From the NCBI GenBank assembly GCA_017621655.1, contig JAGASS010000027.1, positions 1,719 through 65,718 of the forward strand: a stretch of 64,000 nucleotides of DNA, given 5' to 3'. Below are positions 3,965 to 62,619 of the stretch, one piece after another. Each line of letters starts with the position of its first letter. Within the stretch, counting starts at the first letter, position 1. The DNA is from Clostridia bacterium. GTDB taxonomy: Bacteria; Bacillota; Clostridia; Oscillospirales; CAG-272. The translations under genes and the position numbers were made by a program. The notes below the pieces were generated by a model. It was not told the origin of the DNA. It made no database searches and saw only the letters and a list, made by a program, of their open reading frames with translations.

Positions 3965-6900
3965 ATGAAAAACCGCCGCATAAGTATAAAGCTTCTTTCC
4001 GCCTCACTATATAAAAAATACGGAAGCTCCGAGATATTCCCTCTCCTTTCTCCGTATATGGAAGACCTGAGGGGCAGGATCGCATATCCGCATTTTTTTG
4101 AAGCGATAAAAAAGACTGTTTCACCGAGCTTCACGACAGATCCTAAAAAAATAGCGAACACAGTCGGAAAAAATATACGCTATAAGCCGCTTTCGCATTT
4201 CTACACCTACGCGGTCATAAACGCGCTCGTTTCGTTAAACGAAGCACCGCCTACAGAGGATATGCTCGCGAGGACCGTCGATTATCTGAAATCGCTCCAT
4301 TCGCTCGAAACGGAAGAGCTGTATTACGAGCTTTCCGAGGCGGAGAGGATACTCTCCGAAAGCAAGTATTTCAAAAACTGCGATACCGAAACAAAAAACG
4401 AATGCCGCCGCCAGGTCATCCTCTCGTCAAGGAAGCACAAGATCAGCGAAAGCGAAGCGGCAACGCTGTTTCTTAGCCGAGATCCGTTCGAGCGCGAAAA
4501 AGGCATTGCATCTCGGCTCTATTTTCCGATCCTCGGAATAATGACGGCGGCGTTTTCTGTCGTTTCACTTATCGTAACGAAAAACCCCGCGTTCTTTTTC
4601 TTTACGCTCCTGCCGATGTCAGAGGGCGCGAAGCAACTGACCGACTATATCTTTTCGCATTTCGTAAGAACCGTCCCGATCCCGAAGAAAAAGCTCAAAA
4701 GCATTCCCGACAATGCAAAAACGCTCACGGTCATAACCTCGCTTCTGACGGGCAAGGAAAGCGACCTTGAGCTATGTAAGAAGATCCGCGACTGCGCTTA
4801 CTCGAATAAGGAGGTTAACGCATATTTCGGTCTCCTATGTGACTTAAAGGAGTCGGACGGACCGACATCCCCCTCCGACCGAGAGACGGAAAAAAGGATC
4901 GCAGACGCAATCGACGAAATGAACGAACGGTACGGCATAAATATAATCCTTTTCCTGCGCGACCGACGCTACGCGCCGAGCGAGGACAAGTATATGGGCT
5001 GGGAGCGAAAGCGCGGCGCGATAATCGAGCTTACGCGTTACCTCAAGGGAAAAGAGACCTCTATCCGCGTTCTCTGCGGTGACCCAACGCCGATCTTCGA
5101 TACGAAATATATAATCACCCTCGACTCCGACACGCGCCTTTATACGGGAGCAGTAGTTGACCTCGTCGGAACGATGCTTCATCCGTCAAATACCCCCGTT
5201 ATAAAAAACGGCAGAGTTGTAAAGGGACACGCGATACTCCAGCCGAAAATGGAAGCGTCGCTCCTCTCGACTGAAAAAACTCCCTTTACCGTACTGACCT
5301 CCGACGGTGTCGGCGATATATACGCGAGCGCATCCTACGAGACCTATCAAAGCATATTCGGTGAGGGTATCTTTTGCGGAAAAGGAATCTTCGACCTCGA
5401 CGCATATTCCGCCCTTATCGACGGCGCATTCCAGGACGGCGCTGTACTCAGCCACGATCTACTTGAAGGAAGCCGTCTGCGTGCAGGTGCCGTGACCGAT
5501 ATAACTTTGACCGACGATATACCGAAAAGTCCTCTTTCCCACCTTGACAGAAGCCACCGCTGGATAAGAGGCGATATTCAGGCACTCGCTTTCGCGGGAA
5601 AATACTGTAAGGACGAAAACGGAAGGCAGTATAAAAACCCAATTTCTCCACTGTCTGTGTATAAAATATACGACAACGTGCGCCGCGCGCTTACGCCGAT
5701 CTCCTCTTTTGCGGCGCTTCTGCTCTGCATTTTCCGCCCGAGCCACCTGTCACCGTATATATCGCTTCTCGCCCTTGCTTACCTTATAATCCCCTTTTTT
5801 CTTTCGCTCTTATCGACCCTCAAAAGCATCGGCAGACGCTTCTTTTCTCACCTTATTCCTGCCTCCCTCTCGGCAGTTCTCAATTTCATCTATTCCCTTT
5901 CCTCTCTTACTCATACCGCGTTAAGAAACGCCGACGCGATCCTGCGCGCCGGCTTCCGTATGCTCTTTTCACGCAAAAAGCTTCTTGAATGGAAGACCGC
6001 ATCTGAAAGCGACAGCATGAAGGGGCTTCCCCTCGTTCTTTATTCAATGCTACCGTCTATCGCTATAGGACTTTCGCTTCTCATCTTCTGTCCGCGTCTT
6101 CCTCTTAAGATACTCGGCGCGCTGACATTCCTTTTCCCCTTTGCCTGCCACCTACTCGGCAAGCCCTTCAAAACTCCCGAGAAAATATCGAGAAGTGATG
6201 AAAATCAGCTACTCGAATATGCGCGCGACAGCTGGAAATTCTTTTCTCAAAGGGTGAATAAGGAAGAAAACCATCTTCCGCCCGACAATATACAGTTCAC
6301 CCCAGACGAGCGTGTCGCGCACCGCACATCCCCTACAAATATAGGTCTGTATCTGCTCTCGGTCTGCGCCTCCTGCAAGCTTGAGATCATAAACGAAAAG
6401 GAAGCGCTTTCGAGAATTGACAACACATTGAACACAGTGATCCTTCTCCCGAAATGGCACGGGCATTTATATAATTGGTACGATACAGAAACGCTCTTCA
6501 TCTTGGGACAAAGCTATATTTCTACCGTCGATTCGGGAAACTTCATCACCGCGCTCGTCACGGTAAGAGAGCTTCTTCTTTCAAATTTTGAAGCCGACGA
6601 AAGACGTGAAGAGATAATAAAAAAAGCCGACAAGCTGATAGCCGACGCCGACTTTTCCTACCTCTACAATGAAAAAAAGAAGCTTATGCTTATCGGAATA
6701 AACCCCGAAAAGCCCGATCGTGATCCTCCCTGCTACGATTTCTTCACGAGTGAGGAAAGAACGACCTCCTTCTACGCGATAGCGAGGGGCGACGTTCCGC
6801 GAGAGCATTGGAAATATCTGCGCCGTATTCCGACAGTTATCGGCGGATATACCGCGCTCACCTCCTGGACGGGAACGGCGTTCGAATATCTTATGCCATC

Positions 6901-17679: not shown

Positions 17680-17902
17680 TTGTAGGGGGCGACTGCCACG
17701 CGAACCCCCCAAAGCTCATTACATTCGCTTCGGGGAACCCCTCGCCCCACGCAAAAACGATGTTGCATCACATCCGAACACCTCATCCACCGCAGACGCA
17801 GCGTCTGCGGTCCCCCTTCCCCCGCTGGGGAAGGTAGACAACGTGGCGAATCTTCGATACGTTGTTTGTAGGGGGCGACGTCCTCGACGCCCCGTTTCGT
17901 AG
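17680..17902. repeat. Intergenic repeat family A, long composite copy (TGTAGGGGGCGAC ... CGACGCCCCG ends)
   Basis: It starts TTGTAGGGGGCGACTGCCACGCGAACCCCCCAAAGCTCATTACATTCGCTTCGGGGAACCCCT, continues through CGCAAAAACGATGTTGCATCAC and a CCGCAGACGCAGCGTCTGCGG hairpin, and ends TGTAGGGGGCGACGTCCTCGACGCCCCG. Related copies are listed below. Confidence 0.75.
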
Positions 17903-17974
17903 GCAGTGTATCTTTTTTGATTGAGGGAAAGATATTTTTCATAGAGTGTCGTGTGTTATAAAATATCAAGCGTG

Positions 17975-18057
17975 GTATTGCGGGGCGTCGAGGTGAGGGG
18001 TTCCCTAAAACGAGTGAAGCGAGTTTTTGGGGTTCCCGAGGTTGTCGCCCCCTACAA
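17975..18057. repeat. Intergenic repeat family A, about 83-bp copy (inverted relative to 17680)
   Basis: GTATTGCGGGGCGTCGAGGTGAGGGGTTCCCTAAAACGAGTGAAGCGAGTTTTTGGGGTTCCCGAGGTTGTCGCCCCCTACAA, nearly identical to 50541-50622. Confidence 0.85.
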
Positions 18058-25535: not shown

Positions 25536-25541
25536 TAAAAA

Positions 25542-25700
25542 ATCTTTTTGGGGCGTGGTGAGATTCCACACCGGCGGTGACAGTCCGCGAACACTTATGT
25601 GCCGAATGGGTGAAATTCCCATACCGACGGTATAGTCCGGATGAGAAAAGAGAGCCGTGCTTTGCGTCCCCTTTTGTCGACGCGAAGCTTTTTCTTTTCG
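25542..25700 (+). promoter_or_regulatory. FMN riboswitch (RFN element) with expression platform
   Basis: GGGGCGTGGTGAGATTCCACACCGGCGGTGACAGTCCGCGA...GGGTGAAATTCCCATACCGACGGTATAGTCCGGATGAGAAAAGAGAG matches the RFN core. It lies directly upstream of ribU. Confidence 0.85.
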
Positions 25701-25717: not shown

Positions 25718-26284
25718 ATGAAAAACAACAGAAAATCAAGCAAGAAAAATCCGACAAAAAAGCTTGTAGTGCTTGCACTTTTTACTGCGCTCGCGTACAT
25801 AGTCAGCTTTTTGTCGTTTCCGATATTCCCAGCCGCACCTTTTTTGAAGCTCGACTTCGGAAACGTGTTTATAATGCTTTCGGGATTTCTTTTCGGTCCG
25901 TTTGAAGCAATCGCCGTCGCGCTCGTCAAGGAATTGCTTGCGCTGATCGGAACAACGACGGGCGGCGTCGGTCAGATCGCGGATTTCCTTATGACAAGCT
26001 CGTTTGTGATCCTCCCGTCGATTCTTTACAAGTACCGAAAGGGACTGAAGAGCGTCGCCCTTTCGCTTTGCGGCGCGTGCGTTATAGGTACCGTGACTGC
26101 GGCACTTGTCAACAGATTCATTACTTTCCCACTATACATGGGACCTGCCGCGCCTGCAGTTTTCGGCTCGCTCGTCTGGTACGTCGTCGGTTTCAATATT
26201 CTGAAGACCGTGTCGATAAGCATTATAACCGTGTTGCTCTATAAGCGTCTGTCAAGGTTTTTGACCGAGTTTGGGGCGAAATAA
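25718..26284 (+). CDS. ribU: ECF-type riboflavin transporter S component
   Basis: A multi-TM protein with ...PFLKLDFGNVFIMLSGFLFGP... downstream of the FMN riboswitch. ATG 25718 is preferred; the track start at 25577 lies inside the riboswitch. Confidence 0.75.
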   Translation: MKNNRKSSKKNPTKKLVVLALFTALAYIVSFLSFPIFPAAPFLKLDFGNVFIMLSGFLFGPFEAIAVALVKELLALIGTTTGGVGQIADFLMTSSFVILPSILYKYRKGLKSVALSLCGACVIGTVTAALVNRFITFPLYMGPAAPAVFGSLVWYVVGFNILKTVSISIITVLLYKRLSRFLTEFGAK

Positions 26285-26286
26285 TT

Positions 26287-26895
26287 ATGAATGCTGAATA
26301 TAAAATAAATGGCGAGGTCATTGAGACCGATCGGCTTATTTTGCGTGCTTTTCAACAGTCCGACCTCGACGACTTTTTCGAATACGCATCGGTCGAGGGT
26401 GTCGGCGAGATGGCGGGTTGGCGTCATCACGAAAGCAAGGACAAGAGCCAAGATATTCTCAACCGTTTTATCGAGGAAGACAAGACCTTTGCCATTTGCT
26501 TAAAGGAAAGCGGTAAGGTCATCGGCTCGCTCGGCATCGAAAAATACGGAATGGAAGAAGCGCTGACCGAGTTTGACGGTTATCGCGGACGTGAGCTCGG
26601 CTACGTGCTTGCCAAGGATCATTGGGGCAAGGGTATAATGACTGAAGCCGTCAGTGCAGTCATAGACTTTCTGCTTAATGAGCTTGACCTCGATTTTCTT
26701 ACCTGCGGATATTACGATTTCAACAGCCGTTCCGCGCGCGTTCAGGAAAAATGCGGCTTCAAGCCGTACAGAAAGCTTGTTATGGAAACGCGTCTCGGCA
26801 CGAAAGAGCCGGGCGTACTGAATCTTCTGATTAATCCGAGCAAGAAGATCACTTTCAAATTTTCGCATCCCGAAACTTTGATATATGAGGGATGA
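26287..26895 (+). CDS. GNAT-family N-acetyltransferase (RimJ/RimL-like)
   Basis: TDRLILRAF...D...F, IGSLGI...GYVLAKDHWGKGIMTEA and N.RSARVQEKCGF. Confidence 0.8.
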   Translation: MNAEYKINGEVIETDRLILRAFQQSDLDDFFEYASVEGVGEMAGWRHHESKDKSQDILNRFIEEDKTFAICLKESGKVIGSLGIEKYGMEEALTEFDGYRGRELGYVLAKDHWGKGIMTEAVSAVIDFLLNELDLDFLTCGYYDFNSRSARVQEKCGFKPYRKLVMETRLGTKEPGVLNLLINPSKKITFKFSHPETLIYEG

Positions 26896-26908: not shown

Positions 26909-27033
26909 CCGTAGGGGCGACCCTTGGGAACCCCCAAAGCTCATTGCATTCGCTTCGGGGAACCCCGATATTGGTCGCCCGCGCGAAAACGATGTAACAT
27001 CACGTCCAAACGGGGCGTCGAGGACGTCGGCAC
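26909..27033. repeat. Intergenic repeat family A copy
   Basis: CCGTAGGGGCGACCCTTGGGAACCCCCAAAGCTCATTGCATTCGCTTCGGGGAACCCC...CGCGCGAAAACGATGTAACATCACGTCCAAACGGGGCGTCGAGGACGTCGGCACC is collinear with 17680-17780. Confidence 0.8.
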
Positions 27034-35140: not shown

Positions 35141-35223
35141 TAAATAAACCTTCTTTCTTTTCCTCGCTAAACGAGATTGTTTTATAATTTGTCCGCGCTC
35201 TCGGCGGAGATAGGTCGGTGTTT

Positions 35224-35406
35224 TGCCTCCCTCCGGGAGGGAGGTGGCATTTGCAGAGCAAATGCCGGAGGGAGCCCGCGATGTAAATCATCTTGAAGAG
35301 TTGCCCATCTCTTCCAAGGCGGCTCCATAAAAATATGTTATTGAATGTCTTTCGCCCGGTGGCTCCTTCAGTCTGCTTCGCAGACAGCTCCCTCTCGGAG
35401 GGAGCC
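35224..35406. repeat. Intergenic repeat family B (multi-hairpin element) in the glgB-glgC spacer
   Basis: GCCTCCCTCCGGGAGGGAGGTGGCATTTGCAGAGCAAATGCC...CGCCCGGTGGCTCCTTCAGTCTGCTTCGCAGACAGCTCCCTCTCGGAGGGAGCC, homologous to 58364-58570. Confidence 0.8.
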
Positions 35407-41472: not shown

Positions 41473-41577
41473 AAAATCCTTTATATGAAACTCTAAAAAT
41501 CTATATTTATAATTATATAATATTATTATACTACTTATCTTTCAATAATGGAATAGTAAAATAGAACAAAAAACCGA
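41473..41577. repeat. About 105-bp direct repeat, copy 1 (duplicate of the ygjV-like/nth divergent promoter and nth 5' end)
   Basis: AAAATCCTTTATATGAAACTCT...TTATATAATATTATTATACTACTTATCTTTCAATAATGGAATAGTAAAATAGAACAAAAAACCG aligns to 42553-42657 at roughly 85 percent identity by eye. The nth ATG is ATA in this copy. Confidence 0.8.
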
Positions 41578-42552: not shown

Positions 42553-42657
42553 AAAATCCTTTATATAAAACTCTTGAAAAAAGTGTGCTTTTATTATATA
42601 ATGTCATTATACTACTTATCTTCCGATAATGGAATAGCAAATATGAAACAAAAAACG
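42553..42657. repeat. About 105-bp direct repeat, copy 2 (functional nth upstream region)
   Basis: See 41473-41577. This copy contains the ATG of nth (42643). Confidence 0.8.
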
Positions 42658-50470: not shown

Positions 50471-50540
50471 GTAATGAATCTTTGTTGCGAGAATTAAATG
50501 TCTTATGATAGAATTTTGCGTTTTACAAAATCTAATCGTT

Positions 50541-50622
50541 GTATTGCGGGGCGTCGAGGTAGGGGTTCCCGAAAACGAGCAAGGCGAGTTTTTGGGGTTC
50601 CCGAGGTTGTCGCCCCCTACAA
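50541..50622. repeat. Intergenic repeat family A, about 82-bp copy
   Basis: GTATTGCGGGGCGTCGAGGTAGGGGTTCCCGAAAACGAGCAAGGCGAGTTTTTGGGGTTCCCGAGGTTGTCGCCCCCTACAA, near-identical to 17975-18057. Confidence 0.85.
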
Positions 50623-50712: not shown

Positions 50713-51621
50713 ATGAAAATTCACGAAAACATCGTATCAACGATCGGATCGACGCCGCTTGTGCGTCTGTCGAAATTTTTTCCACAGGGAAATCTGATCG
50801 CAAAGCTTGAATATTTTAACCCCGCAGGAAGCGCGAAGGACCGCGTTGCCGCTTCGATGATAGCCGATGCCGAAAGTAAGGGGCTTCTTAAGCCCGGCTC
50901 TGTCATAATCGAGCCGACGAGCGGAAACACGGGAATAGGACTTGCCGCAGTCGGTGCTTCAAAGGGCTATAAGGTGATCCTCACGATGCCCGACACCATG
51001 AGCATCGAGCGCAGGCGTCTCCTTTCCGCTTACGGCGCGGAAATAGTCCTGACCGACGGAAAGCTCGGCATGGCAGGTGCGATAGCGGAAGCGGAGCGTC
51101 TCGCTCAAAAATACGAAAATTCCCTCATCGCAGGTCAGTTCGATAATCCGTCAAACCCCGACGCGCACTATAAAACAACAGGTCCCGAGATCTGGTCGGA
51201 TACCGACGGTAAGGTCGATATTTTCGTCAGCGGAATCGGCACGGGCGGTACCCTCTCGGGCACTGGAAAGTATCTTAAGGAAAAGAATCCGAGTATAAAG
51301 ATCGTCGGCTTCGAGCCGTTGTCCTCCCCCCTTATAACAGAGGGCAAAGCGGGCGCGCACGGCATTCAGGGAATCGGCGCGAACTTCGTGCCGAAGAATT
51401 ACGACGCATCGGTCTGCGACGAGGTCGTGACCGTTTCCGACTCCGACGCATTCGAGTGTGCTAAACAGCTCGCGAGAACCGAGGGCTTCCTCGTCGGCAT
51501 CAGCTCGGGCGCCGCGCTCTTCGCCGCGTCAAAGCTCGCACTTGAAAACCCCGATAAAACAGTCGTAGCACTCCTCCCCGACGGCGGCGAAAGATACCTT
51601 TCAACAGGAATATATGATTAA
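50713..51621 (+). CDS. cysK: Cysteine synthase A (O-acetylserine sulfhydrylase)
   Basis: GSTPLVRL, NPAGSAKDR, EPTSGNTGIGLA and GIGTGGT. Confidence 0.92.
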   Translation: MKIHENIVSTIGSTPLVRLSKFFPQGNLIAKLEYFNPAGSAKDRVAASMIADAESKGLLKPGSVIIEPTSGNTGIGLAAVGASKGYKVILTMPDTMSIERRRLLSAYGAEIVLTDGKLGMAGAIAEAERLAQKYENSLIAGQFDNPSNPDAHYKTTGPEIWSDTDGKVDIFVSGIGTGGTLSGTGKYLKEKNPSIKIVGFEPLSSPLITEGKAGAHGIQGIGANFVPKNYDASVCDEVVTVSDSDAFECAKQLARTEGFLVGISSGAALFAASKLALENPDKTVVALLPDGGERYLSTGIYD

Positions 51622-51653
51622 AATAAGCTCCGAGAACATCGTTCTCGGAGCTT
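51622..51653. repeat. 32-bp perfect direct repeat, left copy (terminator hairpin)
   Basis: AATAAGCTCCGAGAACATCGTTCTCGGAGCTT, identical to 54603-54634. Internal 13-bp stem AAGCTCCGAGAAC / GTTCTCGGAGCTT with loop ATC. Confidence 0.95.
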
Positions 51654-51656
51654 TTT

Positions 51657-54398
51657 CTATTCTTTGCTATCTTTTGGTGCTTTTCCCTTTTCAGCATTAA
51701 TTCTGTCAATCTCTTCTTGAATTAACTGACCAAATTTCTTTTCATCAACTTCAACCGCACCAGTCTCATTCTGCTCTGCAGCGACGGATTTATCAGCAAA
51801 TTCGTCAAATACCTTCTGCTTGTACTCCAACAGTTGCGTAATCCTTTCATCGATCGTATTCTCGCAAAGCAGGCGATATACAAGCACATTTCGGGATTGT
51901 CCCATTCGATAAGCTCGTGATATTGCCTGATTTTCCGTTGACGGCTTAAACTGTGGTTCGCAAATAACAACCACACTGGCGGACTGTATATTCAAACCGG
52001 TTCCGCCGGATTGTATTTGCGCCAAAAGAACAGATCCTTCCGGCGCCTTATCGAACGAATCTATTATCTCTTGTCGACGCGGTGGCGGAACTGAGCCATT
52101 AATCGGTCCGTAGCAACGTTCTCCAAGAAATCCTCCGATAGAGCGAATTGTATCCAAGAAAAACGAGAAAACCAACACTTTTCGCCCTTCTGATTTTGCC
52201 TCATCAACTATTTCGAGCAGTCTTTTTGCCTTACAGGACTTGTTTCTCAAATCATCCACGTCCCACGACAGTCTGCGAGAGGCAGCATAGTTTTTAGAAA
52301 GTACATTTTGCTCATAAGTTTCTTTTTCTTCAGGATTCAACGTGCACCATTCTCTTGTCTCTATGAGTTCGGGCAACTCCGTAAGCACATCTTCGCGCTT
52401 ACGGCGATAGTAAACAGGGGCTACTCGATTTCTAAACTGCGGTGCACTGGGCATAAAAGTCATACTTTGAACCGATGTCGCTACGTTTGGTTGAAGAATT
52501 TCTATCAATGCCACCATTTCCTCAACCTTGTTTTCCAATGCCGTGCCTGTCATAAACAGCATTCTATCTGACTTCGAGCACAAGCGCTTCACGTTTATGC
52601 TTCTTCGCGCGTCTGGGTTTTTGATATAATGAGCCTCATCAACAATAATCAAATCAATTTTTTCTATACTTTCATCCTTTATGTATGCCGTCGTTTCAAA
52701 CGTTGTAACCGCAACTCCTCCTGTTTTCACCCAAGATTTTATAGCTTGCGCTCTGCCCGCGCCGTGTATTCTCGTGACTCGTAACATACTGTGCTTTACA
52801 ACTTCGCGACACCAGTTCGTTATTACGCTTGCAGGGCAAACGACGAGAAAATGGGTAGCTCCCGTATTGCGGAGAGAAACCATCGTGGCAATTGCCTGCA
52901 CGGTTTTTCCGAGACCCATTTCGTCCCCAAGCAATACATTCTTTTGGTGCAAAATATACTTGACGCCCCATTCCTGATATCGGCGGAGAGTACACAGCAA
53001 ACCGTCAGGAAAAAGGACCTCTTCCTGTATTTCTCTCGCCAGATCCTCCGGCAATCCGTAGAGACCATCGTCGTTACCCAGCGCCCCTGGAACGATCTCT
53101 TCAAGCACAGAAATGTACTCGATATTATGCTCCTGAAAATCGGCCCATGCCGTATTGGCGGAGGGTGCCGATTTTTCAGCAAGAAGAAGATTGGCGAGTT
53201 TTTTTATCTTCTTGGCGTATTCGCCTTCGACAATCGGCTTTAGTTTTTTGTATGCATCACGTGTATCCGAACGTTGTTCGTTCGTAAAGAACAGCCAACT
53301 AAGACCGTTCCCGACCATTTCAAGCGTTTCTTCGGCATTCGAAACGATCTCTCGGTTATTTTCGATAATATCGAGTAATTCTTTTCTACTGGCGGTTTTT
53401 GTTCGATAAATGCAAATCGCTTTGACAAGCTCAGTCGCCTGTTTATTACGGTCATCTGCATTTAACTTAATTTTTACGCCTTCGCTCGCCTCCTCCAAAA
53501 ATCGTTTAGCGATCCTCTTCATGGAAAAGGCGGCATTATCACTTATTCCATATATAGACGATAACTGATATGGAGAGGCGGAGTAAATATCCGCCATTGT
53601 GTCTATACCTGCATCACGAAGTGATTTAACCCTAAATCCTCCTTTTTCACGGTTAACTTCCTCAACGGGGACGCTTTTCAGTATTTGCATAGCATTAAAA
53701 GCCATCATTTTCTCTGCGGCATTCTTTACCCGATCCTTTTCCTTTTCGGCTACAGAGTTACATTTAGAAATCTCCCCTCTCAATGAATCCAATTGTGAGA
53801 ACTGATGCTGAAACGGGCTATAACCCTTCGATTCAATTATTCCGGGGCACATTGTTTCCAACGCATCTTCAAACGACGATGGATTCATCAAAAAGGTATC
53901 CCAAGCGACCTCTGCAGATACTTGACACGCTGAATCAACGTCTGAGACAAGGTGAGGGATTACTTGACCGTAGCTCCCATTAAGAATATCTGTCAACTCT
54001 CTATACGCATTCGTGGCGTTTTCTTTCGCGCGCTTTCCGCCAAAAAGCCAAGACAGCCCCGCTAATCCCGGATTAAGAGCAGTTATGTATTGTTTAACGA
54101 TAGAAGCCACTTGATCCGTATAGTTCTGAGCAGTTTCAAATGCCGATTGAGATAGAAGATACTTATAAACGTTGCGTATCAACAAATCCGTGTCCGGCGT
54201 CCTTCTCAACTCTTCGAAAGGATGCTCAAAATAGTCAAAAATCTGTTTTTTTATTGTTGTACCTGTAATCAAGCCATTGGCGATACGTGCTGTATTCGCT
54301 TGTATCTCCGTCTCCTTGGACTTTATATTATCCAATTTCAAAAGAAGTGCTTTGTGCTTTTCAATTAATTGCTTTGCTTGCTTTATGCTGAAATCCAT
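51657..54398 (-). CDS. SNF2-family (SF2) helicase/translocase with large unassigned N-terminal region containing an HhH-like segment
   Basis: The C-terminal half has LRRYQEWGV, LGDEMGLGKTVQ (motif I), IIVDEAHYIKN (DEAH), MTGTALEN, LVFSFF, LLAQIQSGGTGLN and QAISRAYRMGQ (motif VI). ATG 54398 sits behind an AAGGAGA RBS, so it is preferred over 54425. Confidence 0.9.
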   Translation of the reverse strand: MDFSIKQAKQLIEKHKALLLKLDNIKSKETEIQANTARIANGLITGTTIKKQIFDYFEHPFEELRRTPDTDLLIRNVYKYLLSQSAFETAQNYTDQVASIVKQYITALNPGLAGLSWLFGGKRAKENATNAYRELTDILNGSYGQVIPHLVSDVDSACQVSAEVAWDTFLMNPSSFEDALETMCPGIIESKGYSPFQHQFSQLDSLRGEISKCNSVAEKEKDRVKNAAEKMMAFNAMQILKSVPVEEVNREKGGFRVKSLRDAGIDTMADIYSASPYQLSSIYGISDNAAFSMKRIAKRFLEEASEGVKIKLNADDRNKQATELVKAICIYRTKTASRKELLDIIENNREIVSNAEETLEMVGNGLSWLFFTNEQRSDTRDAYKKLKPIVEGEYAKKIKKLANLLLAEKSAPSANTAWADFQEHNIEYISVLEEIVPGALGNDDGLYGLPEDLAREIQEEVLFPDGLLCTLRRYQEWGVKYILHQKNVLLGDEMGLGKTVQAIATMVSLRNTGATHFLVVCPASVITNWCREVVKHSMLRVTRIHGAGRAQAIKSWVKTGGVAVTTFETTAYIKDESIEKIDLIIVDEAHYIKNPDARRSINVKRLCSKSDRMLFMTGTALENKVEEMVALIEILQPNVATSVQSMTFMPSAPQFRNRVAPVYYRRKREDVLTELPELIETREWCTLNPEEKETYEQNVLSKNYAASRRLSWDVDDLRNKSCKAKRLLEIVDEAKSEGRKVLVFSFFLDTIRSIGGFLGERCYGPINGSVPPPRRQEIIDSFDKAPEGSVLLAQIQSGGTGLNIQSASVVVICEPQFKPSTENQAISRAYRMGQSRNVLVYRLLCENTIDERITQLLEYKQKVFDEFADKSVAAEQNETGAVEVDEKKFGQLIQEEIDRINAEKGKAPKDSKE

Positions 54399-54602
54399 TT
54401 TAGGTATTCTCCTTATTCGATGCAAACATGCGCCTGCTTAGTGCATTTCAAAGAATCGATTTTACCCCCTCGCAGAGATCGAAAAAGCATTTATCTTTTC
54501 GCCTATTATTTTATCACAAATCATTGTAGTGTACAATACATTTTGTCAGCTTTTGTATAATGGTTTCGCCAATAATTGTTATTACAGCGTTTCAATAATA
54601 AC

Positions 54603-54634
54603 AATAAGCTCCGAGAACATCGTTCTCGGAGCTT
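54603..54634. repeat. 32-bp perfect direct repeat, right copy (terminator hairpin)
   Basis: Identical to 51622-51653. It lies 6 nt downstream of the stop of the minus-strand membrane-protein gene. Confidence 0.95.
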
Positions 54635-54640
54635 GCTTTA

Positions 54641-55018
54641 TTATAAGGTTTCCGACAGAAAGTCGAAAAATCTTTCCCACGGCTCGACCATGAAAAACGC
54701 GATAAATGCGACGGCGATAAATTGTATCCACCAAATATATTTATTGTATCCCAGCTTATCGGAGACGTTGTAATTGAACATCAAGGTCACAACAAACGCG
54801 GCAACAGACAAAATTCCCGCAATCAATGCAAGCCAATACATAACTACGGATTGACTGTCTTCGGGTACATTTGAGTCAATGTTGTGAACAGTACCGATCG
54901 TGCCTATGCACCGAAACAGACACTCTATTCCAAAGCTCAAAACCACCGCATAAACGAGAGCAAATAATATGACGAATAAAAATTTGTGTTTTTTCACTTC
55001 TTCACCTCCTTCGAGCAT
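54641..55018 (-). CDS. Hypothetical small membrane protein (4 TM)
   Basis: Hydrophobic helices (FLFVILFALVYAVVLSF, MYWLALIAGILSVAAFVVTLMF, IWWIQFIAVAFIAFFMV). The likely start is GTG 54997 behind GGAGGTG. Confidence 0.6.
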   Translation of the reverse strand: MLEGGEEVKKHKFLFVILFALVYAVVLSFGIECLFRCIGTIGTVHNIDSNVPEDSQSVVMYWLALIAGILSVAAFVVTLMFNYNVSDKLGYNKYIWWIQFIAVAFIAFFMVEPWERFFDFLSETL

Positions 55019-58208: not shown

Positions 58209-58363
58209 AATAAATAATAAATATCCACCCGCATAAGCGGGTGGTATTTCATTTTCGGGCATAGCCCTAATACTACTTGCTGCGCACAAGTGCGCCTTAA
58301 ATTGGCCTACCAGCCACGCATCGGCTACCTGCTACCCGTAAACGGGTTTAGGGACGTTTCATT

Positions 58364-58570
58364 GCCTCCCTCCGGGAGGGAGGTGGATTTTTGCGAAGCA
58401 AAAAGACGGAAGGAGCACGCGATGAAAGGGATTATAGAGCGTTGTCCTTTTCATTAGGGCGGTTCTGTAAATATCTTTTATCGAGCGTTTCCCGCCCGAT
58501 GGCTCCTTCAGTCAGCTACGCTGACAGCTCCCGTAGGTTGCGCAGCAAACTACTCCGGAGTTGGAGCCAT
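58364..58570. repeat. Intergenic repeat family B, second copy
   Basis: GCCTCCCTCCGGGAGGGAGGTGGATTTTTGCGAAGCAAAAAG...CGCCCGATGGCTCCTTCAGTCAGCTACGCTGACAGCTCCC...GGAGTTGGAGCC. Confidence 0.8.
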
Positions 58571-58710
58571 TGGCGCGAACTGCCCTTAAACCGCATTTTT
58601 TCTTCACATCATTTCTGTTCATCGGTAAACCTATATTGAACCCCGCCACTATGGCGGGGATTTCATTTACAGCAAAAGGCAGAGACCAAACTGAGGTCTC
58701 TGTCTTTTTA

Positions 58711-61440
58711 TTAATTCGGCACAAAGAAGCAGAATGCGTCAGGCGAGAATCCGCCGACGACGAGACGGTAAAACACCTTGCCGTCAGGGGAAAGCATGTC
58801 GCTCCTCTTGCCGTTTCTCCTTATCATCAGTCGGAACGGCTCTCCGCGCTTCATCGAAAGGTCGCGCATATCAAACGAGAACGCGTAAGATTCGCTGTCG
58901 TCATACTTCGTGTATTTAAGATCAAATGCCTTGCGGCGGCGCTCAAGGCGTTCGCCGAACATGGAATAGCCCGTATTCTCCTGAATTTCGAGCATTCCGC
59001 ACCACAAAAACATCGGCACGCTTCTGTGCATTACCTTGAATTCGGGATCTATACGCAACCAGTCACCGACACCGTCAAGGAGCAGCTCTACTGTATATCT
59101 GTCTCCGTTTCTCGATGCGCGGACGCGCGTTTTATCGGTTTCTTGTCCTGCGGAGTCGATAAAATCAAACCACTCTGCGTCGGAAATATCGCATTCGCGA
59201 ACGGTATATGCTCTTGCCCCCTCGTCTAGACCGAAGTAGAACGGCAAAGGAAGCTCTCCGTTTGAAATTCGGCGCTCGACCTCGGGGAATTCAGTCACAA
59301 GAAGCTTCTCAAGCTCCTCTATACGCCACTCGAGCTTCTCGGGGAATATCTTATATCCGTGCGCTTCGGAATGGTATCCTATTCGGTTATCCTCCTTCGT
59401 TATCGGGATCAGCGCGCGGCTTATCTCGATCTCGCGAAGGACGAGCTTTTTCATTTTTTCAAGCACTTCAAGCTTGTCGCAATCCTCAAGCGCGAGCTTT
59501 TCGCGCAGGGTGTAAAACTCAAAGGTGTGCACTCCGCTTTCAAATATGTAATTTGCCGCAGTTACGACCGTCAACTGCTCGCGGCGCGTCTCGGTTGAAA
59601 AATCGCCGATCGAAGAAAGATCGCGGCATCCTTCGTTCCAAAGACGTGAAAGCTCACTTGTGAGCGTTAAGATCTCGCTCGGCGTGTGGCTGTCAAGAAC
59701 GCAGTCCCAAACTCTGTCTGCGCCGACCATATCGTCAAGCGTCCAGGTCGCGGGCATAGGCAGGTCTATCGGCTCCAAGTGATACGGCGCAACGGGGCTG
59801 TCCTGCATCGGGCTGTACCATTCAAAGTCAACGCCAACGGGGAAATTACGGTAACCGCGTGCAAGCTTTTCAAATGCGTCTGCCGCCTTTGGCGCATCCT
59901 TGCCCCAATATATTCCGCAAAGGTGCAAAAGGAAATCGCGCTCCGTCGGCATAAACGGCTCAAACGCAAGCTCGCCTGCCGCGCGGCTCATAAGGCAAGG
60001 ATAGTTGCCGAAGAACCAGCACTGCATTACTCCGCGCACCGAATGCTCGTGCATATATTTGTATTTTTCGTAAAGAAGCGACGGAACGGGAACGTAAGGT
60101 ACTGTCGATATTTCGTGTGACGAGCAGACCTGAATCTTCGCCCAAGTCTCAACGCCTACCGACGAATCATATCCAATAGCGTCCTCAAAAAGCTGACCGG
60201 GGCCTGCGTATGAAAGCCAATAATCGTAGGCAAGTCGCTTCTCGCCGAGCTGATCTACGAGTCCAAGATCCTCGAAGTTGACGAGGTGTCTTACGTTCTT
60301 GTCGCGCGTTAGGCATGATTCCTTTATATCCTCTGGCTTCCAACCCCTCTGCGCGTAGGTCCAGCTAACGTATTCTGCGTTTGGCGAGACCGATTTTATA
60401 GTGTCAGATATAGTTTTTTCAACAAAAGCAAGGGTTTTGCCAAGCGTGCCGAACCTTTCGCGGCATCGCTTACAGGTAAGAGCTCCGCCCGATCCACAAT
60501 GCGATTCCGCCTCTCCCACACTCAGGTTTATATATCCCGAAAGTCCGGGTGCGCGTCTGAACAGCTCCGAATATGCTTCCTTGATATATGCAAGTCCCTT
60601 TTCCGTCGAGGGGCAAAGGTGATAGATCCATGGCGATTCCTCGTCGCTGAGCATATCGGGATGATTCTTCAGCTTTTCGTTCATATACGTCGATGCGGGA
60701 TCGACCGAGAAAAGATAAGTCTTAATTCCGTACCGACGGCATTTTTCAATGGTTCGGTTGAGCTTCGCGATTCTTCTTTCGGAATCGGCACCGTACTCGG
60801 GAACGATGTCGCTTTTAACAAGATACTGAAGCGTTGCGCCGAGCCACAGTGCGTTTACACCGTCGTGCGCGAGGCGATTAAGATACTCGTCGGGGTAATA
60901 ATCAATATCGTCGGCAAGCTCGTTTTCGCGTTCCTCAATTGCGATATGGCTCGCAGGGGTGAAATAGCAGCGCGATATTCTCTCTCTTATAAACGGGCGT
61001 CTTTTTATCTCGCCGAGCGGAAGTCTTGAGCCCGAACGGCGAAGCATTTCGTCTTCAATATAAACGAGCGCACGGCGAATACCCTCGGTATCAGCGGCGA
61101 TGACCTCACAGCCGTCGCGCTCCACGCGGATAATATACGCCTCAAAGCACTCCGTTTCTCCCTTGCGAACTACGATCTTCTTGCCGAGACCGTCAACCTT
61201 TATCTGCATAACGGATAAAAACTTCTTAAAATCGTCATATGCCGTCTCGAGCAGCTCGTCGTTGAAGCTTATGTCAAGCGTGACATGCGAGAAGTCGACC
61301 TCGTCCGAGCTCGGCTCGTCCTCGTTCCAATGCGGCGGGATCTCTTTATGATACGGGCGCGCAAGATCTTGGGCAAACGTCATCTCCGGCTGGCGGTATT
61401 TAAACGGATCTTCAAACTGCGTGAATCTCATACCTGACAC
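58711..61440 (-). CDS. Large (909 aa) cytoplasmic protein of unassigned family, possibly glycoside-hydrolase-like
   Basis: A long uninterrupted ORF with no signal peptide or TM helices. The N-terminal segment ...ECFEAYIIRVERDGCEVIAADTEGIRRALVYIEDEM resembles the GH20b/GH67N-type domain pattern. A Cys cluster HCGSGGALTCKRC is present. I recognise no diagnostic catalytic motif. Confidence 0.8.
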   Translation of the reverse strand: MSGMRFTQFEDPFKYRQPEMTFAQDLARPYHKEIPPHWNEDEPSSDEVDFSHVTLDISFNDELLETAYDDFKKFLSVMQIKVDGLGKKIVVRKGETECFEAYIIRVERDGCEVIAADTEGIRRALVYIEDEMLRRSGSRLPLGEIKRRPFIRERISRCYFTPASHIAIEERENELADDIDYYPDEYLNRLAHDGVNALWLGATLQYLVKSDIVPEYGADSERRIAKLNRTIEKCRRYGIKTYLFSVDPASTYMNEKLKNHPDMLSDEESPWIYHLCPSTEKGLAYIKEAYSELFRRAPGLSGYINLSVGEAESHCGSGGALTCKRCRERFGTLGKTLAFVEKTISDTIKSVSPNAEYVSWTYAQRGWKPEDIKESCLTRDKNVRHLVNFEDLGLVDQLGEKRLAYDYWLSYAGPGQLFEDAIGYDSSVGVETWAKIQVCSSHEISTVPYVPVPSLLYEKYKYMHEHSVRGVMQCWFFGNYPCLMSRAAGELAFEPFMPTERDFLLHLCGIYWGKDAPKAADAFEKLARGYRNFPVGVDFEWYSPMQDSPVAPYHLEPIDLPMPATWTLDDMVGADRVWDCVLDSHTPSEILTLTSELSRLWNEGCRDLSSIGDFSTETRREQLTVVTAANYIFESGVHTFEFYTLREKLALEDCDKLEVLEKMKKLVLREIEISRALIPITKEDNRIGYHSEAHGYKIFPEKLEWRIEELEKLLVTEFPEVERRISNGELPLPFYFGLDEGARAYTVRECDISDAEWFDFIDSAGQETDKTRVRASRNGDRYTVELLLDGVGDWLRIDPEFKVMHRSVPMFLWCGMLEIQENTGYSMFGERLERRRKAFDLKYTKYDDSESYAFSFDMRDLSMKRGEPFRLMIRRNGKRSDMLSPDGKVFYRLVVGGFSPDAFCFFVPN

Positions 61441-61590
61441 CTCTGAATAAAAAAAATGAATTAGCGTTTGGTTACGGTTTTATTTTATCATGTTTTAAGA
61501 CGGTTTGCAAGATGAAAAAAGCCGTGATTTCTCACAGCTTTTTTATTAATTCAGCAGAAAGATATGGAATACGGTGGGCAAAGAAAAAGA

Positions 61591-62619
61591 TCAAAACTTC
61601 GTAAAACCTAAATCGTCAAAGGAATATTCCATGTTTTCTACTTCAAGAAATCTCTCAAGGCAGCTGAGCAGATCGCAAATGCCCTGCCTGCTCATTTCCA
61701 TAAATTCGTTCTGCATATCGGTCGCGCCGGTATAACGAGAACATGGCAATGGATAATTTTTAGTAAAATCAGACGCTACTATCGTACCGGTTGCCTCGTA
61801 GCGAGATACACCGGTATCTCGGTAGTAGTATGAAGTTATGTAAGTATATTTGCCGGTGTGCGTTTTAGGAACGTATATATAGAAATTTATGCTGAATGTA
61901 TCGTTCAAAACACTGTGTAAGCAGAATTCTATTTTTTCGGTATCTGCCCAATAATACAGAGAAAAGCTTTCGGACGCGTATCCTCCGTAATTATCAGCGG
62001 TGTTTGAATAATAGCAGTGGTCTCCGTTTACTGTACCGTTTTGAATCACGAAATTTTTGAGATATCCGTATATATCCTTAGGTTTGTTTTGTGGCGGCTT
62101 CGTCGTACTTGGCGTGGTTTGCGGCGGCTTCGTCGTATTCGGCTTGGTTTGAGTCGGCTCTGTCGTATTCGGCGTGCTTTCGGGCGGTTCCGTCGTATTC
62201 GGCGTGCTTTCGGGCGGATCTGTCGTAATTATCGTTCCTCCCGGAATAGTATGAGACGGTTCGCCATTGTTTTTCGCACCGAAAATTCCAGATATCCATA
62301 GAATGAGAGCAATCACCAAAAGCAAACAGAATATTAAGCATACGACCAATATGTACTTTTTCTTATTTGAGGGTGTATCGTTTTGAGGTTTCGCTTGGGG
62401 AACGGCCACGGGCTCGGGCTCGGACTCGTCCGCAGACAGCAATTTGTCGGTAGAAACATCAAACAGTTTAGCTAAGGCGACTATATTGTCAAGAGACGGT
62501 TGTGTCTGTCCGGTCTCCCAAAGACTGATGCTTTGTCTTGTTACTTTTAATTTGTCAGCTAATTCGTCCTGTGACATGTGATTTAATTTACGGTACTTTC
62601 TAATGTTATCACTCAGCAT
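61591..62619 (-). CDS. Membrane-anchored XRE-HTH protein with Pro/Thr-rich repeat linker and unassigned extracytoplasmic domain
   Basis: MLSDNIRKYRKLNHMSQDELADKLKVTRQSISLWETGQTQPSLDNIVALAKLF (HTH_3), the TM helix YILVVCLIFCLLLVIALILWI, PPESTPNTTE repeats, and a roughly 160-aa C-terminal domain. ATG 62619 is preferred over GTG 62628. Confidence 0.8.
   Translation of the reverse strand: MLSDNIRKYRKLNHMSQDELADKLKVTRQSISLWETGQTQPSLDNIVALAKLFDVSTDKLLSADESEPEPVAVPQAKPQNDTPSNKKKYILVVCLIFCLLLVIALILWISGIFGAKNNGEPSHTIPGGTIITTDPPESTPNTTEPPESTPNTTEPTQTKPNTTKPPQTTPSTTKPPQNKPKDIYGYLKNFVIQNGTVNGDHCYYSNTADNYGGYASESFSLYYWADTEKIEFCLHSVLNDTFSINFYIYVPKTHTGKYTYITSYYYRDTGVSRYEATGTIVASDFTKNYPLPCSRYTGATDMQNEFMEMSRQGICDLLSCLERFLEVENMEYSFDDLGFTKF
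62080..62217 (-). repeat. Tandem 30-nt coding repeat (about 4.5 units) encoding PPESTPNTTE-type decapeptides
   Basis: The peptide units are PPESTPNTTE, PPESTPNTTE, PTQTKPNTTK, PPQTTPSTTK and PPQNKP. The DNA shows matching periodicity. Confidence 0.85.

Follow-up and report, generated by a model that had tools for sequence, protein, structure and literature searches.

A one-gene SNF2 islet probably integrated into the terminator hairpin between cysK and a membrane-protein gene of a Clostridia bacterium

Insertion with long target duplication (ILTD) has been reported for RM genes (Nobusato et al. 2000; Furuta, Abe & Kobayashi 2010, PMC2853133). RM-system ILTDs have duplications longer than 30 bp, carry no mobility gene, are low in GC, and have repeats that overlap the 3' ends of genes (PMC2853133). 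Integrase-less, att-flanked islets are also known, the CIMEs (reviewed in PMC5704250), as are integration hot spots set between core genes, such as the defence islands of E. coli (PMC10121019) and the core defence hot spots of P. aeruginosa (PMC10250203). Here we compare with these systems a locus in a stretch of 64,000 nucleotides from a Clostridia bacterium (hereafter the window), in which a single SNF2-family gene lies between two copies of a hairpin (Table 1). We conclude that the segment between the copies is probably a horizontally acquired islet, made of one SNF2 gene and its predicted promoter, that was integrated in the terminator hairpin of cysK and a membrane-protein gene, with duplication of this hairpin.

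Table 1. Features of the islet and its borders, in window coordinates.
Feature	Position	Strand	Description
cysK	50713..51621	+	Cysteine synthase A, 302 aa; Pfam PALP, 262 bits; core gene, left border of the insertion site, last in the metF-metH-cysK block
Hairpin copy 1	51622..51653	.	Stem 51625-51637 / 51641-51653, loop ATC; terminator-like on both strands, predicted bidirectional terminator for cysK (+) and SNF2 (-); dG -22.4 (+) and -25.4 (-) kcal/mol, z about -6 to -7
Inserted segment	51654..54602	-	2949 bp; one gene and its promoter region; missing from the sister species
SNF2-family ATPase gene	51657..54398	-	913 aa, ATG start; identical gene call in the independent assemblies L002 and L003
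SNF2 upstream region	54399..54602	-	204 bp, inside the insert; contains the promoter-like site
Promoter-like site	54535-54530 (-35), 54513-54508 (-10)	-	Pattern match from a consensus scan: -35 TGTACA, 16-nt spacer, TG-extended -10 TAAAAT
Hairpin copy 2	54603..54634	.	Identical to copy 1; predicted terminator of the membrane-protein gene (minus strand); dG -24.5 to -25.3 kcal/mol
Small membrane-protein gene	54641..55018	-	125 aa, in no Pfam family; forms the right edge of the insertion site

The original prediction described a perfect 32-bp direct repeat that is itself a hairpin with a 13-bp stem, and this description is exact at both places. The 32-mer AATAAGCTCCGAGAACATCGTTCTCGGAGCTT occurs twice in the 64-kb window, where no third copy was found even at 3 mismatches, and shuffled sequences give 0.00 expected chance matches. 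Each copy consists of a perfect stem, AAGCTCCGAGAAC / GTTCTCGGAGCTT, with 7 GC pairs among its 13 bp and a loop of 3 nt. The folding energies range from -22 to -25 kcal/mol (z = -6 to -7.6 relative to shuffles), and all four strand/copy combinations were called terminator-like. The copies lie 0-6 nt from three stop codons: copy 1 begins at the base directly 3' of the cysK stop (TAA, 51619-51621) and ends 3 nt from that of the SNF2 gene (51657-51659, minus strand), and copy 2 ends 6 nt from that of the membrane-protein gene (54641-54643, minus strand). T-rich tails follow copy 1 on the plus strand (TTTTTCTATT) and both copies on the minus strand. Judged by these predicted features (a GC-rich stem-loop, a U-tract and a position at the 3' end of transcription units), the hairpin qualifies as an intrinsic (Rho-independent) terminator, and copy 2 is predicted also to stop read-through before it reaches the putative SNF2 promoter. 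The window has other families of short dispersed repeats as well. The segment between the copies holds the SNF2 gene alone; integrase, transposase and terminal inverted repeats were looked for in 51654-54602 and none was found, in line with the earlier reading.

The species closest to that of the window by cysK (L008, 94% amino acid identity) has the order metH-cysK, one hairpin, membrane gene, i.e., the empty site that the original prediction called for. Window position 51661 is joined there directly to 54590 via the single hairpin, whose left junction is that of copy 1 and whose right junction (GCTTTATTATAAGG...) is that of copy 2. An NJ tree built from cysK alone, with no support values, puts the window species in a nested position with L008 as its sister; its cysK is 89-91% identical to that of the other four species. 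The order metF-metH-cysK is conserved in L008, L103, and L106. Homologues of the membrane-protein gene (47-60% amino acid identity) lie 3' of the hairpin in L008, L006, and L106, and after a beta-lactamase-family cargo in L103. The SNF2 gene was found at this site in none of five related species, and the slot after cysK is hypervariable, with six different contents in six related species: beyond the two states already described, it reads cysK-H-bla-membrane in L103, cysK-T2-ADH-aldolase-DeoR-H-membrane in L106, cysK-T2-Zn-ribbon/XRE-H-membrane in L006, and cysK-H-295aa-LRR... in L007 (H, hairpin). The cysK/membrane-gene hairpin is an integration hot spot, with different cargo on one or the other side of the hairpin.

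We compared the composition of the insert with that of its flanks by GC and GC3. The SNF2 gene has a GC of 0.437 and a GC3 of 0.426, the lowest GC3 among the 38 ORFs of the window (means 0.497 for GC and 0.577 for GC3, the latter with a standard deviation of 0.053). That the insert is more AT-rich than its surroundings, as first proposed, holds, but mainly on the cysK side (GC 0.548 and GC3 0.624 for cysK), the opposite flank (GFO, GFO, AraC) being itself rather low (GC 0.44-0.47). Homologues of the SNF2 gene have a GC of 0.38-0.45 whatever that of their flanks, which reaches 0.587 in L009.

The islet protein has the N-lobe and Helicase_C lobe of the SNF2/Swi2 ATPase family, with the motor at approximately residues 470-870. 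Pfam SNF2-rel_dom (131.6 bits) and Helicase_C (55.4 bits) score above their cut-offs, and all Pfam matches are of helicase type (SNF2-rel_dom, Helicase_C, DEAD, ResIII) and fall within residues 479-842. Profile matches in the PDB (SsoRad54, ISWI) and Foldseek matches also support an SNF2 motor, and by homology the protein is a predicted dsDNA translocase, for which a role in defence or against mobile elements is possible. The AF2 model of the protein (mdd805098ea63) has a pLDDT of 79.6, and that of the N-domain alone (mf59c6229a533) is all-helical with a pLDDT of 90.9. Residues 1-440 are modelled as an all-helical domain with no known fold: the Foldseek search against the PDB gave no match at E<=0.001 except a local one to the N-terminal HhH of Rad51/Dmc1 (probability 0.95-1.0, about 72 columns), and the predicted structure has a Rad51-N-like (HhH)2 module at about residues 240-310. 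Neither Pfam nor Foldseek detected in the protein a nuclease, HUH, DDE, tyrosine- or serine-recombinase fold or motif.

The nearest relatives of this protein are 76-82% identical, and some of them are also found in inserts. In L009 (75% amino acid identity), an insert of ~3.5 kb carries the SNF2 gene and no other; this insert is missing in L107, where the order PAP2-tRNA-Ala-terminator-DUF4129 represents the empty site. At the borders of the L009 insert, ~25 nt from the 3' end of tRNA-Ala are imperfectly duplicated, and the insert also includes 66-nt hairpin-containing repeats that are internal and not target duplications; the repeats flanking the relatives are hence a mixed set. In L101 (70%), the gene lies between tRNA-Leu and a 19/20 copy of the tRNA-Leu 3' end, 3.66 kb apart. 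Of about 44 contexts examined, 7 have a tRNA gene no more than 600 nt away. Strong flanking repeats occur in 4 of 8 contexts of the clade with at least 69% identity. Among more distant relatives, about 70 had flanks that could be used and none of them showed such repeats; the control maximum was 26 bits. We found no conserved terminal sequences or inverted repeats of the cassette across the relatives, nor a recombinase partner, circular form, or donor. The closest full-length homologue (L095/L096, 76%) faces a cysK-like 3' end tail-to-tail, with a related hairpin between them, an arrangement that fits either a target specificity or an old cysK-hairpin-SNF2 link followed by losses. The SNF2-family terminators of close relatives have the same outer stem as the window, AAGCTCCG...CGGAGCTT; past the SNF2 stop, a hairpin AAGCTC(CG)...(CG)GAGCTT is common to the window, L096, and L012, is degenerate in L009 and L010, and is present in 3 of the 67 distinct flanks downstream of SNF2 genes.

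A repeat of this length could have misled the assembly, and two contigs may in principle have been mis-joined at a common 32-nt hairpin: assemblers with short k can be confused by such a repeat, and the short k=31 Logan contigs end exactly at both hairpin copies. Such breaks are nevertheless what a real repeat of 31 nt or more would cause. Two independent metagenome assemblies from different samples (L002 and L003) have the same structure on scaffolds of 66 and 74 kb at 99.85-99.99% identity, and even a mis-join would need some other genomic site at which this hairpin flanks the SNF2 gene, which leaves an artefact a negligible chance. The repeat might instead be real and have no relation to the SNF2 gene, either as a generic dispersed repeat (a REP- or MITE-like terminator family) or as look-alike terminators that evolved independently. 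The dispersed repeat families mentioned above would suit this reading, and hairpins of the type AAAGCTCCGAG..CTCGGAGCTTT do arise in unrelated contigs of viruses, with 8 such stretches among the 2.9 million scanned. The original prediction had raised the possibility of a high-copy repeat, which is at odds with the two copies per 64 kb and with the single copy of the hairpin core in each of three related species-representative genomes. The two copies are moreover identical in loop and leader too, and the empty site has exactly one of them with both outer junctions kept. We therefore regard a generic repeat as highly improbable.

More weight is due to the possibility that the SNF2 gene is an ancestral resident, i.e., that the arrangement cysK-hairpin-SNF2-hairpin-membrane gene is old and that the sister species lost the gene by recombination between the hairpins and the others by replacement. 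The junctions of L008 are exactly as a deletion between direct repeats would give, since recombination between the two window copies would yield this very state; in L095/L096, a hairpin that has the outer stem seen in the window likewise separates the SNF2 gene from a cysK-like 3' end facing it, and several SNF2 lineages have an SNF2-linked hairpin motif in common. Such a rapid turnover of the slot also makes multiple losses not implausible and the counting of gains and losses a weak argument. Still, the nested position of the window species and its empty-site sister demand at least 3-4 independent losses against one gain, the lowest GC3 in the window is unexpected for a long-resident gene, and an earlier duplication is needed in any case to account for two hairpins. 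The loop (3 nt) and leader (4 nt) supply the 7 free bases that alone are informative on the age of the duplication; 5 of these 7 differ from L008, and 0 of 7 differ between the window copies. An ancestral gene is thus unlikely, and parsimony and composition favour a gain of SNF2. One can also imagine that the gene mobilises itself, its N-domain driving insertion into hairpin or cruciform DNA such as terminators and tRNA 3' ends. There are three independent single-gene SNF2 inserts (~3.0, 3.5, and 3.7 kb) at structured targets with no other protein, strong flanking repeats are confined to the closest clade, and the N-domain is conserved and confidently predicted while lacking a known fold. Against this, SNF2 motors move along DNA and do not cut or join it, the protein has none of the recombinase or nuclease folds searched for, the cassette lacks conserved ends, and the targets and duplications are of different kinds, the duplicated tRNA 3' end being the classic signature of an integrase. 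Self-mobilisation is accordingly very unlikely. A related and likewise very unlikely idea is that the SNF2 clade consists of minimal mobile cassettes, in which the gene and its terminator hairpin, acting as attachment site, would alternate between a two-hairpin chromosomal form and a one-hairpin circle and would land on DNA able to form hairpins or cruciforms (terminators, tRNA 3' ends), the translocase with its Rad51-N-like module aiding its own integration or excision. If so, the translocase might extrude or track cruciforms, or recruit host recombination proteins.

The acquisition of the islet by insertion or recombination through a common terminator hairpin, the core of the original prediction, is supported by the repeat, the empty site in L008, the copy number, and the composition; none of the three outcomes named there as refuting it was observed. 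Its description as recent gains little: four species have the same 26 stem bases, so the perfect identity of the copies says little on its age. The integration would have left a whole hairpin on each side, cysK and SNF2 sharing copy 1 and the membrane gene retaining copy 2, and every flanking transcription unit would still have a terminator. As the islet encodes no recombinase, the reaction was presumably done in trans. The likeliest route would be a Campbell-type or att-like event in which the hairpin in the chromosome recombined with its match on incoming DNA. The catalyst would be a recombinase, either the host's or that of an element, or else RecA, with some 30 bp of homology to act on; alternatively, staggered breaks on either side of the hairpin could have been filled in, as in ILTD. 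A further recombination between the two copies might release a one-hairpin circle with the gene and restore the empty site.

Hairpin-forming repeats around a single gene recall integron cassettes (attC) and IS200/IS605 elements, for which hairpin DNA is a recombination substrate. However, attC sites measure at least about 57 nt, whereas the hairpin here is 29-32 nt long and perfectly paired, with an inner stem (CGAGAAC / GTTCTCG) that misfits the RYYYAAC/GTTRRRY cores, and the SNF2 gene differs from a cassette in having its own putative promoter. Hairpins of an IS200/IS605-type or PATE element would leave with the element, and the empty site of L008 keeps one. RapA/HepA, the SNF2 ATPase that recycles RNA polymerase, is likewise a stand-alone bacterial SNF2 ATPase of similar size. 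A RapA/YwqA-like housekeeping role, suggested at first, gained no positive support: the NCBIfam RapA score is 50 bits against a cut-off of 576, and the foreign composition, the scattered contexts, and a presence that varies between sister species fit it poorly.

The SNF2 motor is also in common with helicases of defence systems (DISARM DrmD, Dpd DpdE, Zorya ZorD, BREX BrxH). The best PADLOC profiles are DrmD (PDLC02627, 411 bits, residues 200-885) and DpdE (PDLC02852, 406 bits), and a ZorD structure is among the Foldseek matches (rank 32). The islet protein differs in its own N-domain, in NCBIfam scores far under the curated cut-offs, and in having no system partner genes nearby. DrmD was rejected at 69 bits against 610, the neighbours being cysK and the small membrane protein; DpdE at 71 against 500, with no dpd cluster present; and ZorD at 97 against 1500, the islet protein lacking the nuclease domain that ZorD has and no zor genes being nearby. 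The proposed placement in a defence island found no support at this locus, whose slot in sister species holds beta-lactamase-family and sugar-metabolism genes, an LRR protein, and an XRE/zinc-ribbon pair. Among homologues, HsdR or GmrSD neighbours are confined to the shorter relatives (~700 aa), at 10 of 47 distinct loci, and are found at 0 of 20 long-form loci. The locus resembles the core-gene hot spots in having one slot between core genes, with cargo that varies by lineage and sometimes no identifiable means of mobilisation. It differs from them in that the cargo (beta-lactamase-family, ADH/aldolase/DeoR, LRR protein, XRE/Zn-ribbon) is mostly not related to defence and that the insertion point can be traced to one hairpin.

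The islet shares with CIMEs and tRNA-linked islands the direct repeats that duplicate the target, the lack of a recombinase inside, and a mobilisation presumed to occur in trans, and its relatives in L009 and L101 lie in inserts at the 3' ends of tRNA-Ala and tRNA-Leu. Its ends are attL/attR-like, in that the 32-nt repeat is the target hairpin and the tRNA 3' end is duplicated in relatives. An integrase-carrying genomic island or prophage was rejected, as the sole islet protein has no integrase domain or fold; no cognate integrase or parent element was identified, and a scan of 2.9 million viral contigs did not find the hairpin in its exact form. Unlike tRNA-linked islands, the window has a protein-gene terminator as target, and the hairpin arms of 13 bp with a 3-nt spacer are unlike the usual 6-8-bp overlap of tyrosine-recombinase cores. 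The likeness to ILTD (PMC2853133) extends further: inserts of less than 20 kb without a mobility gene (here 2949 bp and one gene), direct repeats of more than 30 bp, present once in a genome that lacks the insert (here 32 nt and one hairpin in L008), an insert GC lower than that of the genome, repeats overlapping gene 3' ends (with 46-bp examples in H. influenzae), and a mechanism unexplained there as here. Among the differences, the duplicated target is here exactly one whole terminator hairpin, the host is a gut anaerobe of the class Clostridia (a class not among the taxa listed in the excerpts of PMC2853133 consulted), and homologues of R and M are not in the islet, whose cargo is a lone SNF2 ATPase with no nuclease or methylase. 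The islet hence does not encode the double-strand-break activity that has been put forward as the driver of RM ILTD. It appears to behave like an ILTD, yet not as an RM insertion, and it fits a known, mechanistically unexplained way in which lone accessory genes enter genomes without integrase or transposase.

The 32-mer AATAAGCTCCGAGAACATCGTTCTCGGAGCTT is present in two exact copies, 2949 bp apart, between cysK and the convergent gene of a 125-aa membrane protein; a search of the window allowing up to 3 mismatches found no further copy, and shuffles give an expectation of zero. In each copy, 13 perfectly matched base pairs enclose a loop of 3 nt (folding energy -22 to -25 kcal/mol, z -6 to -7.6), a structure predicted to be terminator-like on either strand. 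The interval consists of the SNF2 gene and 204 bp of DNA upstream of it, in which a pattern scan detects a TG-extended promoter-like site. Neither a second gene nor terminal inverted repeats were found in these 2949 bp, and no tRNA or tRNA fragment was detected in the repeat. The identical structure occurs on two independent metagenome scaffolds (66 and 74 kb), and Logan k=31 contigs terminate exactly at both copies. Hence, the repeat is real and was not made by assembly. A 48-nt version of it (88%) was discarded because the 5/8 match in each of the 8-nt extensions carries no significance where the sequence is AT-rich.

Positions of the duplicated hairpin, the SNF2 gene, and other features in the window and in retrieved contigs (L numbers)
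Feature	Sequence	Positions	Strand	Remarks
Hairpin copy 1	window	51622-51653		starts at base 1 past the cysK stop; ends 3 nt short of the SNF2 stop
SNF2 gene	window	51657-54398	minus	913 aa from ATG; identical gene call in independent assemblies
Hairpin copy 2	window	54603-54634		ends 6 nt short of the membrane-protein gene stop
GFO/IDH/MocA oxidoreductase pair	window; L007	55119-57161; 5958-8000		95.7% identical
Strain-level polymorphism	window; L003	58663-61573; 4356
906-aa gene	window	58711-61431		no Pfam, NCBIfam, or PADLOC match
Weak 34-nt direct repeat	window	58705-58738, 61540-61573		79%; brackets the 906-aa gene
GGGGTTCCC / GGGGAACCCC repeats	window	17968-18057, 50534-50622		94% over 62 nt
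Same repeat family	window	17706-17741, 26931-26966		97%
Intergenic ~170-nt element	window	35223-35392, 58362-58532		79-93% identical; palindrome CCTCCCTCCGGGAGGGAGG inside
AT-rich ~100-nt duplication	window	41473-41576, 42553-42657		83-89% identical; 1.08 kb apart, around a 176-aa ORF
Tandem 30-nt repeats	window	62078-62227		in or beside a 342-aa HTH-family gene region; at least 4 overlapping 60-nt copies, 73-78% identity
FMN riboswitch	window	25540-25656		105.7 bits; upstream of 188- and 202-aa ORFs at 25718-26895
~90-nt block	L009; L012	7155-7244; 7675-7763
Hairpin + ~115-nt units	L101	5440-5782, 8830-9045		tandem/dispersed; flank SNF2 beside tRNA-Leu
Tyrosine-integrase element	L010	1-6908		HTH, MobC/NikA, AlpA, AAA_25, integrase; adjoins the SNF2 homologue, abuts tRNA-Ala
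Short-form SNF2 loci with defence-type neighbours	L036	6084-9245
	L055	4066-5112
	L017	6101-7912
	L084	6138-7190

The original prediction was that a relative should carry cysK, one hairpin, and the membrane-protein gene in direct succession. This empty site is present in L008, the sister species by cysK, where the order is metH (90% nt) - cysK (89% nt) - TAA - TAAAAGCTCCGAGAAC-TAA-GTTCTCGGAGCTT-GCTTTATTATAAGG - membrane gene, and the single hairpin has the same right junction as window copy 2. The left flank of copy 2 matches the region of the L008 cysK stop at 10/12 positions, which may be a coincidence or the outcome of selection for a T-tract. When one genome per species was scanned, the hairpin core turned up in three other Eubacteriales MAG species, L008 among them, in one copy each; viral contigs lack its exact form. 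These counts in relatives and viral contigs speak against a generic high-copy repeat.

The direction of the change can be addressed with the phylogeny of CysK. The tree of 27 proteins, rooted on a 75% homologue, nests the window species inside the group with the empty-site species as its sister; the window protein is 94% identical (aa) to that of L008 and 89-91% identical to those of the other related species L006, L007, L103, and L106. All five lack SNF2 at the cysK site. If the gene had been ancestral there and lost elsewhere, recombination between the two hairpin copies would recreate the state of L008. This scenario requires three or four losses against one gain, which is more parsimonious, and the foreign composition of the gene points in the same direction; we regard ancestral presence as unlikely. 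Of the 7 positions in the loop and the 4-nt leader, 5 differ between the window and L008 and none between copy 1 and copy 2. The stem, with the same 26 bases in four species, is uninformative for dating.

The SNF2 gene has a GC of 0.437 and a GC3 of 0.426, the lowest GC3 among the 38 window ORFs of at least 150 aa (mean 0.577, sd 0.053). The insert had been described as clearly more AT-rich than the flanking genes. This holds for cysK (GC3 0.624) and less so for the right-hand flank (GFO, GFO, AraC), which is itself somewhat low (0.49-0.53).

The slot after cysK is a hot spot. It is empty in L008 and contains SNF2 in the window, a beta-lactamase-family gene between hairpin and membrane gene in L103, and a 295-aa protein, an LRR protein, and others after the hairpin in L007, leading to the GFO genes. 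In L106 (ADH, aldolase, DeoR) and L006 (zinc-ribbon and XRE genes), the cargo lies between a different hairpin that follows cysK, T2 in both species, and the hairpin preceding the membrane gene. The same hairpin thus receives cargo to its left or to its right, and among the compared species only the window has it on both sides. A possible SNF2 remnant in L006, where the end of the XRE gene resembles that of SNF2, was rejected as too short (7 codons) and of low complexity. The neighbouring genes are metabolic or of no known function, and we therefore abandon the reading of this locus as a defence island. The GFO/IDH/MocA pair is far more similar between the window and L007 than cysK, at only 84.7%, which points to a recent exchange of this block between the two species.

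Other parts of the window vary or are repeated as well. L003, from the same species, is 99.85% identical up to 58663 and then diverges, with transketolase genes in place of the 906-aa gene; in L103, the two ends of this gene lie close together. One copy of the GGGGTTCCC / GGGGAACCCC repeats, a dispersed family of short repeats rich in these motifs, falls in the metH-cysK intergenic region, and related sequence is found in L103 upstream of the metF-metH-cysK block; Rfam gives no family at gathering score for them. The ~100-nt duplication resembles a promoter or leader region in two copies.

The SNF2 protein matches only helicase-type Pfam families (SNF2-rel_dom, Helicase_C, DEAD, ResIII), all within residues 479-842. 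Scores for the curated NCBIfam models (DrmD, DpdE, ZorD, RapA, and others) are far under their cut-offs, and the defining features of RapA were searched for and not found, so that the RapA-like role once suggested is not retained. PADLOC sub-profiles of DrmD and DpdE reach ~410 bits over residues 200-885. None of the partner genes of these systems is present, and the defining features of DISARM, Dpd, and Zorya are missing. The AlphaFold model of the N-terminal domain (pLDDT 90.9, pTM 0.74) is all-helical over residues 1-440, and several of the helices are 30-45 residues long. Foldseek found no match to it in the PDB at E<=0.001; the sole consistent local match is the Rad51/Dmc1 N-terminal (HhH)2 DNA-binding domain, at about residues 240-310 (probability 0.95-1.0, ~72 columns). 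The protein shows no nuclease, HUH, DDE, or recombinase fold, which makes it very improbable that it cuts and joins its own gene. Relatives of ~700-730 aa lack the first ~200 residues, and this short form has a type I HsdR gene directly downstream in 9/47 distinct loci, and GmrSD or RhuM in single loci each. Such neighbours occur in 0/20 loci of the long form. By gene context, the short-form sub-family is defence-linked and the long form is not, and a defence role for the wider SNF2 family is a reasonable guess.

Full-length relatives number in the hundreds and grade from 82% to 47% identity. We compared the upstream with the downstream DNA of each homologue, using shuffled partners as a control (maximum 26 bits). 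Strong flanking repeats (60-242 bits) occur only in the window, L009 (75% aa), L010 (73%), and L101 (70%), and the idea that such hairpin repeats are common to all relatives was rejected. Of the more distant loci (47-61% identity), ~70 had flanks suited to this comparison, and none of these exceeds the control range except L029, whose "repeat" (15-33 / 4196-4214) is the Nextera transposase adapter AGATGTGTATAAGAGACAG at both contig ends, a false inverted repeat. The L009 insert is apparent from L107, a related species without it (82% aa by the adjacent DUF4129 protein) in which PAP2, tRNA-Ala(cgc), a terminator, and DUF4129 succeed each other in 362 bp. L009 has ~3.5 kb extra after tRNA-Ala, with SNF2 as the only gene, bounded by an imperfect ~25-nt duplication of the tRNA 3' end; the 66-nt hairpin repeats of L009 are internal to the insert rather than target duplications. 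In L101, tRNA-Leu(cag) lies on one side of SNF2 and a 19/20 copy of the 3' end of this tRNA on the other, 3.66 kb away. The gene is poorer in GC than its surroundings in both L009 (0.447 vs 0.587) and L101 (0.381 vs 0.476), and it lies at most 600 nt from a tRNA gene in 7 of ~44 contexts examined. The inserts in the window, L009, and L101 thus show SNF2 travelling on repeated occasions as the only gene in integrase-less stretches of ~3-3.7 kb. On plasmids and phages no match exceeds 60% identity, the best being a 57% short form on a faecal "phage" fragment of 7.7 kb that has no annotation.

These loci have further peculiarities. The ~90-nt block, TACTTTT.GTC...CAACTTAC.CTACTTTT.GTC followed by a terminator hairpin, is downstream of SNF2 in L009, L010, and L102 and upstream in L012; a circularly permuted cassette would fit this switch. 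The L101 units start with GCGGACGAAGGG and end with CCCTTCGTCCGCACCA on the minus strand, resembling a tRNA acceptor stem, and are not called by ARAGORN or Rfam. Further left, L010 encodes another SNF2-related protein, which is larger and has a YAcAr domain.

A hairpin directly follows the SNF2 stop in the window (AAAAAGCTCCGAGAAC...GTTCTCGGAGCTT), in a 76% homologue, L096 (AAGCTCCG...CGGAGCTT, then a convergent cysK-like 3' end), and in L012 (AAGCTCTGCC...GGCGGAGCTT), with a decayed AAAAAGCTCC version in L009 and L010; the related motif is present in only 3/67 distinct downstream flanks of the family. The same hairpin also stands at the cysK/membrane site of species without SNF2. The simplest reconciliation would be integration by recombination between like hairpins of the incoming DNA and the chromosome, which would automatically leave one hairpin on each side. 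The cassette could exit by the reverse reaction, taking one hairpin along. Staggered breaks flanking the hairpin, followed by fill-in, would give the same product as recombination between hairpins. The exact hairpin, as a possible attP, is absent from phage and virus contigs, and relaxed matches there with a 10-bp stem are unrelated terminators.

Empty site, copy number, and composition together support the structural interpretation of an insert in a duplicated terminator hairpin. Lone accessory genes framed by long target duplications have been on record since 2000, with no mechanism to account for them, and the event described here is of this known but mechanistically unexplained kind. Three features are new: a terminator hairpin duplicated exactly, a SNF2 cargo that lacks a nuclease, and single-gene inserts of this family that recur at structured targets. 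Here the duplication covers one whole terminator hairpin with sharp bounds, the sister species has an empty site, and the same gene family has made similar single-gene inserts elsewhere, which renders the question of mechanism testable. The locus further illustrates how insertion between two convergent genes can leave neither them nor the newcomer without a terminator. It draws attention to an uncharacterised, widespread SNF2 family of gut Clostridia, whose N-terminal domain, modelled with confidence, matches no known fold. The interest would be high only if the cassette or its protein directs its own movement.

Several known systems do not account for the insert. The hairpin is too short and too perfectly paired for an integron attC and lacks the core sites. 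An 11+7+11 reading could mimic the core of a Xer/dif-like site; there is no Xer-module architecture, and the hairpin has no similarity to the Firmicutes dif sequence. At most, a recombinase acting in trans may be involved. IS200/IS605, PATE, Helitron/IS91-type elements, and group IIC introns are excluded because the empty site retains a hairpin and because neither a HUH or RT gene nor conserved ends are seen. The insert resembles the integrase-less, att-flanked islets known as CIMEs (PMC5704250), and its site resembles the hot spots between core genes without identifiable mobilisation (PMC10121019). The closest match is insertion with long target duplication (ILTD), described for restriction-modification (RM) genes by Furuta et al. 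(2010; PMC2853133): inserts below 20 kb, low in GC and without a mobility gene, with direct repeats above 30 bp that overlap gene 3' ends and are single-copy in the empty genome, and a proposed involvement of double-strand breaks by the RM enzyme. The insert in the window shares with ILTD its small size, the lack of a mobility gene, and direct repeats above 30 bp that correspond to one copy at the empty site, and differs in having no RM cargo; the repeat has no third copy within the 64 kb of the window and occurs once in each of three related genomes.
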